DNA from: Torpedo marmorata
Taxonomy: Eukaryota
DNA: 64,000 nt
Assembly: GCA_977017645.1 (NCBI GenBank)
Contig: OZ360223.1
Location: 204,662,001-204,726,000 of the forward strand
Direction: 5' to 3'
Below, in pieces: positions 1 to 862 of this stretch. The translations under genes were made by a program, and so were the position numbers. The notes below the pieces were generated by a model. It had not been told where the DNA came from. It was given only the letters and a program-made list of their open reading frames with translations, and searched no databases. Position 1 is the first letter of the stretch. Each line of letters begins with the position of its first letter.

Positions 1-77
1 AAGAATTTAATGTCTTCAGGTTACTTAAGGCAGATGAGATGAACTTTAAAATCTTCAAGGTAATGAGCAAAGAAATG

Positions 78-395
78 GGAAAACACATGAGAGGGAAGGA
101 TAAAGATAAGGAAAAAGAGAGGGAACATGAGCGAAGGAAACGGCAGCGAGAGGAACAAGATAAGGCACGTAGAGAACGGGAAAGGCAGAAACGGCGAGAA
201 CAGGATGGGAAGCATTTGAAAAACTTGGATGAGAGGGAATCTAAGCGAGACTCACTGGAGGAAGGAGAGCTTCAAGAATACAAGATGGAGATAACCATTT
301 GTAATTCACCACACAGACGAGAAGGATCGATAGAGGATCGAGGTGAGGAGGAGGATTCTTCGGCAATTAAATCTCCTCAACAAACCTCCAAAAAA
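78..395 (+). pseudogene. CDK11: Intronless CDK11 (p110) N-terminal coding fragments in permuted order, captured in an LTR element
   Basis: In ORF 39-497, GKHMRGKDKDKEKEREHERRKRQREEQDKARRERERQKRREQ (78-203) matches recalled CDK11 GKHARVKEKEREHERRKRHREEQDKARREWERQKRREM. KHLKNLDERESKRDSLEEGELQEYKMEITICNSPHRREGSIEDRGEEEDSSAIKSPQQTSKK (210-395) matches KRLKNSDDRDSKRDSLEEGELRDHRMEITIRNSPYRREDSMEDRGEEDDSLAIKPPQQMSRK. No introns and no kinase domain. Confidence 0.88.
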
Positions 396-857
396 GTTGA
401 AAAGTCGTACTCCGGTTCGGTGTTCTTCATCCCCGAGAAGATCCAAGAGAGAAAGGCACCTTCCAGTACATTTAAAAGACTATGTGCAGTGACTTAAAGA
501 CTTTATTCAGTACATCGCAAAGACTATGGGCAGTGACTTAAAGACTTTGTATGTTTCCAGTTAATACATTTTAAGTTAGGTAGCGCGGGATTTATAGTTA
601 CCATGATTAGTGGAAGTTATGCTTAAATTCTCTGTAGTGTTAACATAGTTAAATTTAACTTTTATACTTATTTACCAGTAAGCACAAAACATTTTTTTGA
701 GGGGGAAGAGTGTTATGGGAACGCGCATGTGCGCGTGACGTCATATACACGGAGTTACATTGTATGATGAGGTTCAGTTTGGCACCATCTTGGCATGAAT
801 AAAGATGCTTACAGTTTTTCTCGAGTGAGGTTATTTTCAAAGGGAAAATACCCAACA
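396..857 (+). mobile_element. 3' end of a Gypsy-like LTR retrotransposon: pol tail, PPT and short 3' LTR (711-857)
   Basis: An alternative frame reads SPRRSKRERHLPVHLKDYVQ* (stop 490-492), resembling the RRSxRxRxxPxxLxDYV tail of Gypsy pol. Polypurine tract GAGGGGGAAGAG at 699-710 directly precedes TGTT...AACA (711-857), which contains AATAAA at 798-803 and TGACGTCA at 736-743. Confidence 0.75.
464..548 (+). repeat. Two-copy tandem duplication, about 44-bp period
   Basis: cagtacatttaaaagactatgtgcagtgacttaaagacttt is followed by cagtacatcgcaaagactatgggcagtgacttaaagacttt. Confidence 0.85.
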
Positions 858-862
858 ATTTT

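Follow-up and report, generated by a model that had tools for sequence, protein, structure and literature searches.

The 64,000 nucleotides of Torpedo marmorata DNA analyzed here (contig OZ360223.1, positions 204,662,001 to 204,726,000 of the forward strand; hereafter the window) begin inside a copy of a non-autonomous Ty3/Gypsy LTR retrotransposon, in which the internal open reading frames are replaced by cargo derived from host genes. The element is 2549 bp long and starts 1692 nt upstream of the window (5' LTR at G000:C22:204660309), its two LTRs have diverged by 8.8%, and its 5-bp target duplication is exact. The parts that fall within the window are the following:

1 to 78, plus strand: CDK11 cassette exon 4b, nt 49-126, 95% identical to a native C60 exon with AG/GT ends
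79 to 201, plus strand: CDK11 exon 5, nt 1-123, spliced to exon 4b, matching the native exon at 123/123 positions, its 3' end in a microhomology tract
202 to 224, plus strand: remnant of CDK11 exon 2 (nt 96-130) minus 12 nt lost privately, likely the former back-splice site, 123 nt shorter
225 to 340, plus strand: CDK11 exon 3, whole and spliced, 96% identical to native
341 to 396, plus strand: CDK11 exon 4, nt 1-56, 95% identical to native, ending in microhomology with the integrase tail
397 to 710, plus strand: 3' internal region of the Ty3/Gypsy parent, a sequence also found 3' of the integrase gene in 7 of the 10 autonomous-type loci fetched
within 397 to 710, plus strand: last codons of the integrase with the stop at 490-492, then 3' untranslated region
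699 to 710, plus strand: polypurine tract, directly before the 3' LTR
711 to 857, plus strand: 3' LTR, 147 bp, TG..CA
858 to 862, plus strand: right copy of the 5-bp target-site duplication, the same 5 bp preceding the 5' LTR

The exon 4b piece starts 11 nt upstream of the window, where it is joined to PRC1 sequence, and the element carries upstream of CDK11 the PRC1 5' untranslated exon followed by spliced coding exons up to codon ~255, named by homology and mapped to the native PRC1 on C76. The joins between CDK11 exons in the window are all spliced and introns are absent, therefore the source was RNA. A single open frame at 63-491 spans both CDK11 blocks and shows, as the sequence-only reading had noticed, a GKH...RREQ block before a KHLKN...QTSKK block; among named proteins it is closest to the CDK11B of rays and sharks, and no Pfam match was found in the window's own frame. 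The native order is indeed the reverse: this genome and the ray and shark proteins have the blocks the other way round, as does a native-type contig (X1) of a related organism. The segment takes in cassette exon 4b in addition to the two blocks first described and, rather than the lone retrocopy that it had been taken for, it is cargo of an amplified LTR retrotransposon. The frame of the window copy is broken by an insertion in the PRC1 part, and the copy, a decayed family member, shows no sign of function. The PRC1 part of this element has taken up a 245-bp insertion (L001:1158-1402, ~280 to 40 nt before the window) that includes a 5S rRNA-like sequence (Rfam RF00001, E 5e-8), is 96-97% identical to repeats in the CDK11 introns and is likely a 5S-derived SINE.

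Querying with window positions 60-400 gave matches at the best 40 of 290 candidates, that is, at 39 other loci with 90-93% identity. Family members are recognized by the 147-bp LTR, a conserved motif after the 5' LTR, which may match a serine tRNA and is a candidate primer binding site, and a purine tract before the 3' LTR. Target duplications of 5 bp are exact in 15 of 28 loci with two LTRs and agree at 4 of 5 bp in 4 others, several of the missed ones being boundary errors. Rearranged 5' parts were observed in L004 and L075, both with exact target duplications (LTR straight onto PRC1; leader inverted), and in one element a unit of ~60 nt at the junction of exons 3 and 4 is present in four tandem copies (L074:3706-3941).

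The parent is an element of ~5.1 kb exemplified by L099, which encodes in this order gag with a zinc knuckle (CCHC), protease, reverse transcriptase (RT), RNase H and integrase (PF03732 and PF00098 (weak), PF13650, PF00078, PF17917, PF17919, PF17921 and PF00665), and is assigned to Ty3/Gypsy on the basis of domain types and order. L099 is the autonomous-type partner, with a 90% identical LTR and a place in the same clade, although the L099 copy itself is broken; the parent family is large, with 2307 candidates for one stretch of pol. In a tree of LTR plus leader, with rows from 31 of 35 loci, L099 and the locus L056, described below, group with all 19 PRC1-CDK11 copies with 99/99 support.

The native CDK11 gene lies on the minus strand of G000:C60 in this 6.2 Gb genome, exons 2-5 occupying G000:C60:1361000-1331780, and its C-terminal region is single-copy, matching C60 only. 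Native exons measure 130 (exon 2, which holds the ATG), 116 (exon 3), 125 (exon 4), 126 (exon 4b) and 151 nt (exon 5), all bounded by AG..GT; the numbering presumes one non-coding exon upstream, and exon 1 was absent from the matches to two short motifs over 110 kb. Cassette exon 4b is present in annotated isoforms of Pristis (P0008) and Chiloscyllium (P0064). Its reality rests on these isoforms and on the splice signals, because contigs of related organisms that include it match on one side over just under 31 letters, which is too short. When three element copies were compared with 90 kb of the native locus, matches fell at exons 2, 3, 4, 4b and 5 only.

A circle made of exons 2-5 is predicted to measure 648 nt (522 without exon 4b). 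Since this length is a multiple of three, the ATG lies inside and no stop is met in its frame through two turns, the predicted circle could support rolling translation. Inverted repeats flank it, as ~260-bp pairs of 82-83% identity between the 19-kb stretch that precedes exon 2 and intron 5; these are not specific to the circle, because other CDK11 intron pairs have as many inverted repeats or more, some of them longer.

As the sequence-only reading had supposed, the join between the two CDK11 blocks lies off the exon boundaries and at a similarity: in the family, exon 5 nt 123 is followed by exon 2 nt 96. The last 28 nt of exon 5, up to its donor, and the first 95 nt of exon 2 are thereby left out, and the break falls at an 11-nt repeat with 5 further nt in common, the sole exact repeat of at least 11 nt in the exon 2-5 circle. 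A 25-nt pattern across this junction is found at 214 places in the genome at ≤2 mismatches (control 0). The start of exon 2, missing from the family, is found at three places, namely the native gene and two loci, L055 (C22:134.33 Mb) and L056 (C76:18.99 Mb), in which the last base of exon 5 abuts the first base of exon 2; a pattern over this exact join retrieves these 2 loci (control 0). No more than these 2 copies retain the exact join. In L055, exon 4 is joined to PRC1 and to integrase at the same points as in the family, and at a site in exon 2 this copy keeps the native base, the derived one being present in 27 of 34 copies. Since the exact exon 5|exon 2 join survives in L055 and L056, the mid-exon junction of the family is most likely a later, in-frame deletion of 123 nt across the back-splice. 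The window copy, which does not hold the exact join, is shorter than it by 123 + 12 nt, the 12 nt being present in 22 of 22 other aligned copies.

Two origins had been offered for the permuted order, a template jump and a circular RNA followed by deletion. Taken alone, the shortened junction would favor the jump, and the microhomology behind that proposal is real; the exact joins favor the circular RNA and a subsequent deletion. A mid-exon junction with clear microhomology had also been put forward as refuting a circular origin, a rule that turns out to be misleading because that junction appears to be secondary.

The boundaries of the cargo carry further information. L056 contains no PRC1: its LTR, leader and gag and pol remnants lead into exon 4 from nt 54-57, after which come the rest of exon 4, exon 4b, the full exon 5 and exon 2 up to nt 63, where the copy is cut, so that its 3' switch point is not visible. 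PRC1-type copies are missing 35 nt of exon 4, which are present in L056 and the native gene only. At the other end, the exon 4 piece stops at nt 53-56 in most copies having it. Microsimilarity is found at three switch junctions: a common A-run between pol and exon 4 in L056, 9-10 of 11 nt alike between exon 4 (nt 56) and the integrase tail, and 7 of 8 nt alike between PRC1 and exon 4. With nt 56 as the point of entry and nt ~57 as that of exit, the cargo would amount to one turn of the 648-nt circle, assembled from different copies, as no single copy holds the whole turn. Entry and exit lie in one A-rich tract and the circle has 5 A-rich sites, hence their coincidence has a chance of ~1 in 5 if A-runs are preferred (~1% if switching is uniform). 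No substitution was found that is common to L056 and the family but was absent from the gene at the time of capture. The L056 locus (C76:18.986-18.988 Mb) starts at LTR nt 27 and has similar ~60-nt sequences on both sides, which look as if the fragment entered by a route other than integrase.

Taken together, these data make it very probable that the CDK11 cargo was captured from a back-spliced circular RNA of exons 2-5 through RT template switching. In the proposed mechanism, minus-strand synthesis would quit the integrase tail at the 9-10/11-nt match to exon 4 nt 46-56, and RT would enter the co-packaged circle at exon 4 nt 56. It would then copy exons 4, 3 and 2, the back-splice, exons 5 and 4b and the remainder of exon 4 to nt ~57, where the circle would already have been cut by RNase H and the template behind the enzyme destroyed; degradation of the template behind RT by RNase H is established retroviral biochemistry. 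A return of RT onto the element at the A-run in pol would give the state seen in L056, and replacement of gag-pol and 35 nt of the circle by the 5' part of a PRC1 mRNA would give that of L055. A 123-nt deletion between the two 11-nt repeats may then have removed the back-splice, the deleted form being amplified in trans, after which the window copy would have inserted, dropped 12 nt more and decayed. We give the strict one-turn mechanism a chance only a little better than even. The same narrow preference applies to the fuller version, in which exactly one turn was copied, the RNase H cut at the point of entry sets the length, and the family keeps the whole series of stages (the circle by itself, the circle joined by PRC1, loss of the back-splice, gain of more mitotic mRNAs).

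Other templates could be imagined. A linear RNA with repeated exons, arising from a tandem duplication of exons 2-5 since lost or from trans-splicing and captured by the same LTR switching, would yield an identical exact exon 5|exon 2 join, and no circular form was observed here. This is nevertheless improbable, since it gives no reason for entry and exit to meet at exon 4 nt 56/57, and the native locus, checked for block order and internal duplication in the present-day assembly, has a single exon 2 and a single exon 5. We consider still less probable a microhomology jump from exon 2 to exon 5 on linear CDK11 mRNA, with the exact-join copies as separate events or later recombinants. It draws on the 214 copies with a mid-exon junction at the 11-nt repeat and 5 common nt, and conflicting characters and LTR swaps do show recombination between copies; however, L055 combines the exact join with the family's own junctions of exon 4 to PRC1 and to integrase, one deletion accounts for the family more simply, and a back-spliced RNA would be needed anyway because a splice-exact join cannot arise by such a jump.

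The lack of introns and the 95-100% identity to host exons would also suit a solitary processed pseudogene of a circRNA or mRNA made by a LINE, a hypothesis with next to no chance of being right: the copies have paired LTRs, a polypurine tract, an integrase tail and a 5-bp duplication outside the LTRs, there is no poly(A) after the CDK11 part, and hundreds of copies have identical junctions. The element structure common to the copies refutes it. As to RNA evidence for the circle, no contig piece among those listed from four runs, which belong to two related organisms, spans the exact join; contigs drop rare forms, and this result speaks neither for nor against the circle.

CDK11 and PRC1 are not the only host genes concerned. 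Eleven more distant PRC1-bearing loci were fetched (L059-L069), and pieces of TPX2 and POLR3F were recognized by Pfam in 2 of the 3 scanned; in distant PRC1-bearing loci a coiled-coil piece sits between the exon 5 and exon 2 remnants, and nothing matched it as a donor at E 1e-10. A sub-family with different LTRs (L065:3389-5700, L068:3060-4432, L064 and L067) gained TPX2, the coiled-coil piece and POLR3F almost in full, in frame with the PRC1 and CDK11 remnants, and L068 has a 496-codon single frame running through the PRC1, CDK11, TPX2, coiled-coil and POLR3F pieces. TPX2 and POLR3F were captured later, by sub-families. A second coiled-coil cargo, with no convincing Pfam match, lies within the POLR3F piece at L060:4600-5230 and L069:4660-5430, and the 5' region of the elements (e.g. 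L055:130-526) contains GC-rich tandem units in variable number, 70-84% identical to the PRC1 first exon. PRC1, TPX2 and CDK11 act in mitosis, and the mitotic cargo likely reflects RNAs that are abundant in cells with an active element. In the amplified forms, all 8 of the 8 junctions that link identified host pieces keep the frame (approximately P = 0.002, counted after the fact), where 5-8 nt of microhomology between these exons would lead one to expect 0.46-0.51 per junction; the amplifying lineages are possibly selected for an open frame.

Concerning the age of the copies, the divergence between cargo and host exons is 2.3-9.2% in a set of 45 copies and 4.5% in the window copy. Private substitutions comprise 96 synonymous, 300 replacement and 18 stop changes (neutral expectation 24, 72 and 5%), and frameshifts result from 47 of the 57 private small indels: individual copies decay neutrally. 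Among shared substitutions 19 of 53 are synonymous versus 96 of 414 private ones, a borderline difference (P = 0.06). Shared small indels shift the frame in 6 of 10 cases, some being alignment artefacts at junctions and two being common to L015 and L035; since these two copies share frameshifts, amplification does not strictly depend on an open frame. In a related organism, a 1131-nt contig (X4 record 17) links the integrase tail to permuted CDK11 and PRC1, with ~9% of letters different, and a second related contig (X2 record 10) bridges permuted CDK11 and PRC1; no run listed as containing the sequence is recorded as RNA, the runs are guessed to be RNA, and the contigs are no proof of transcription. 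Because these contigs carry permuted CDK11 together with PRC1, the deleted form of the junction likely predates the split from the related organism.

If the one-turn reading with its preserved series of stages is true, it would supply the missing mechanism for circRNA-derived pseudogenes, most such captures would be masked by later deletions, these elements would be a fossil record of germline circRNAs and mRNAs, and selection possibly keeps one long open frame in amplifying lineages. The present case also indicates that a circRNA was likely present in the germline or early embryo of a cartilaginous fish, and it predicts cargo that is one circle long, with the circle opened where there is microhomology, in an LTR element. 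The diagnostic back-splice junction can disappear from 99% of copies.

TRIM and LARD elements are non-autonomous LTR elements, and in retrozymes the element's own RNA is circularised by ribozymes. The family described here shares with retrozymes (PMC11722881) a non-autonomous LTR element linked to circular RNA; unlike in retrozymes, its cargo is likely a host back-spliced RNA. The closest case is that of Dong et al. 2016 (PMC4897178), who described 33 high-confidence circRFWD2 pseudogenes in mouse, with LTR enrichment in the flanks and MMERVK10C-int sequence nearby, and called the mechanism mysterious; the present family likely provides a mechanism for writing circular RNAs into genomes, left unexplained at that time. 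Both have a non-colinear exon junction in genomic copies, occur in many copies, lack poly(A) and are associated with LTR sequence; in contrast to the mouse pseudogenes, here both switch points lead into a named parent, the cargo has an apparent one-turn length, intermediates are visible, the host is a cartilaginous fish and the carrier a Gypsy element. Because 214 of the 216 junction-bearing matches lack the exact join, a junction-matching pipeline like that of PMC4897178 would miss these copies.

The literature search, in which subscription journals were thinly covered, returned no report of this family or of circRNA capture inside an LTR element. Capture of linear mRNA by LTR elements through template switching at microsimilarity has been described by Tan et al. 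2016 (PMC5131818), and the cases given in the available text resemble ours in the partial cargo replacing internal ORFs, the microsimilarity, the multi-gene chimeras and the further amplification as non-autonomous elements. They differ in having linear mRNA templates, one template being likely circular here, and in that one lineage has here gathered pieces of at least 4 identified host genes; the words 'circular' and 'circRNA' have 0 occurrences in the main text of PMC5131818. The maize element Bs1, according to the same source, is likewise a non-autonomous LTR element with several transduced host-gene fragments, for which the available text describes no circular template; compared with Bs1 and with TRIM/LARD elements, the present family measures 2-3.8 kb with 147-bp LTRs. 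Within what these sources present, the case joins two known kinds, combining the circRNA hallmark of PMC4897178 with the workings of PMC5131818.
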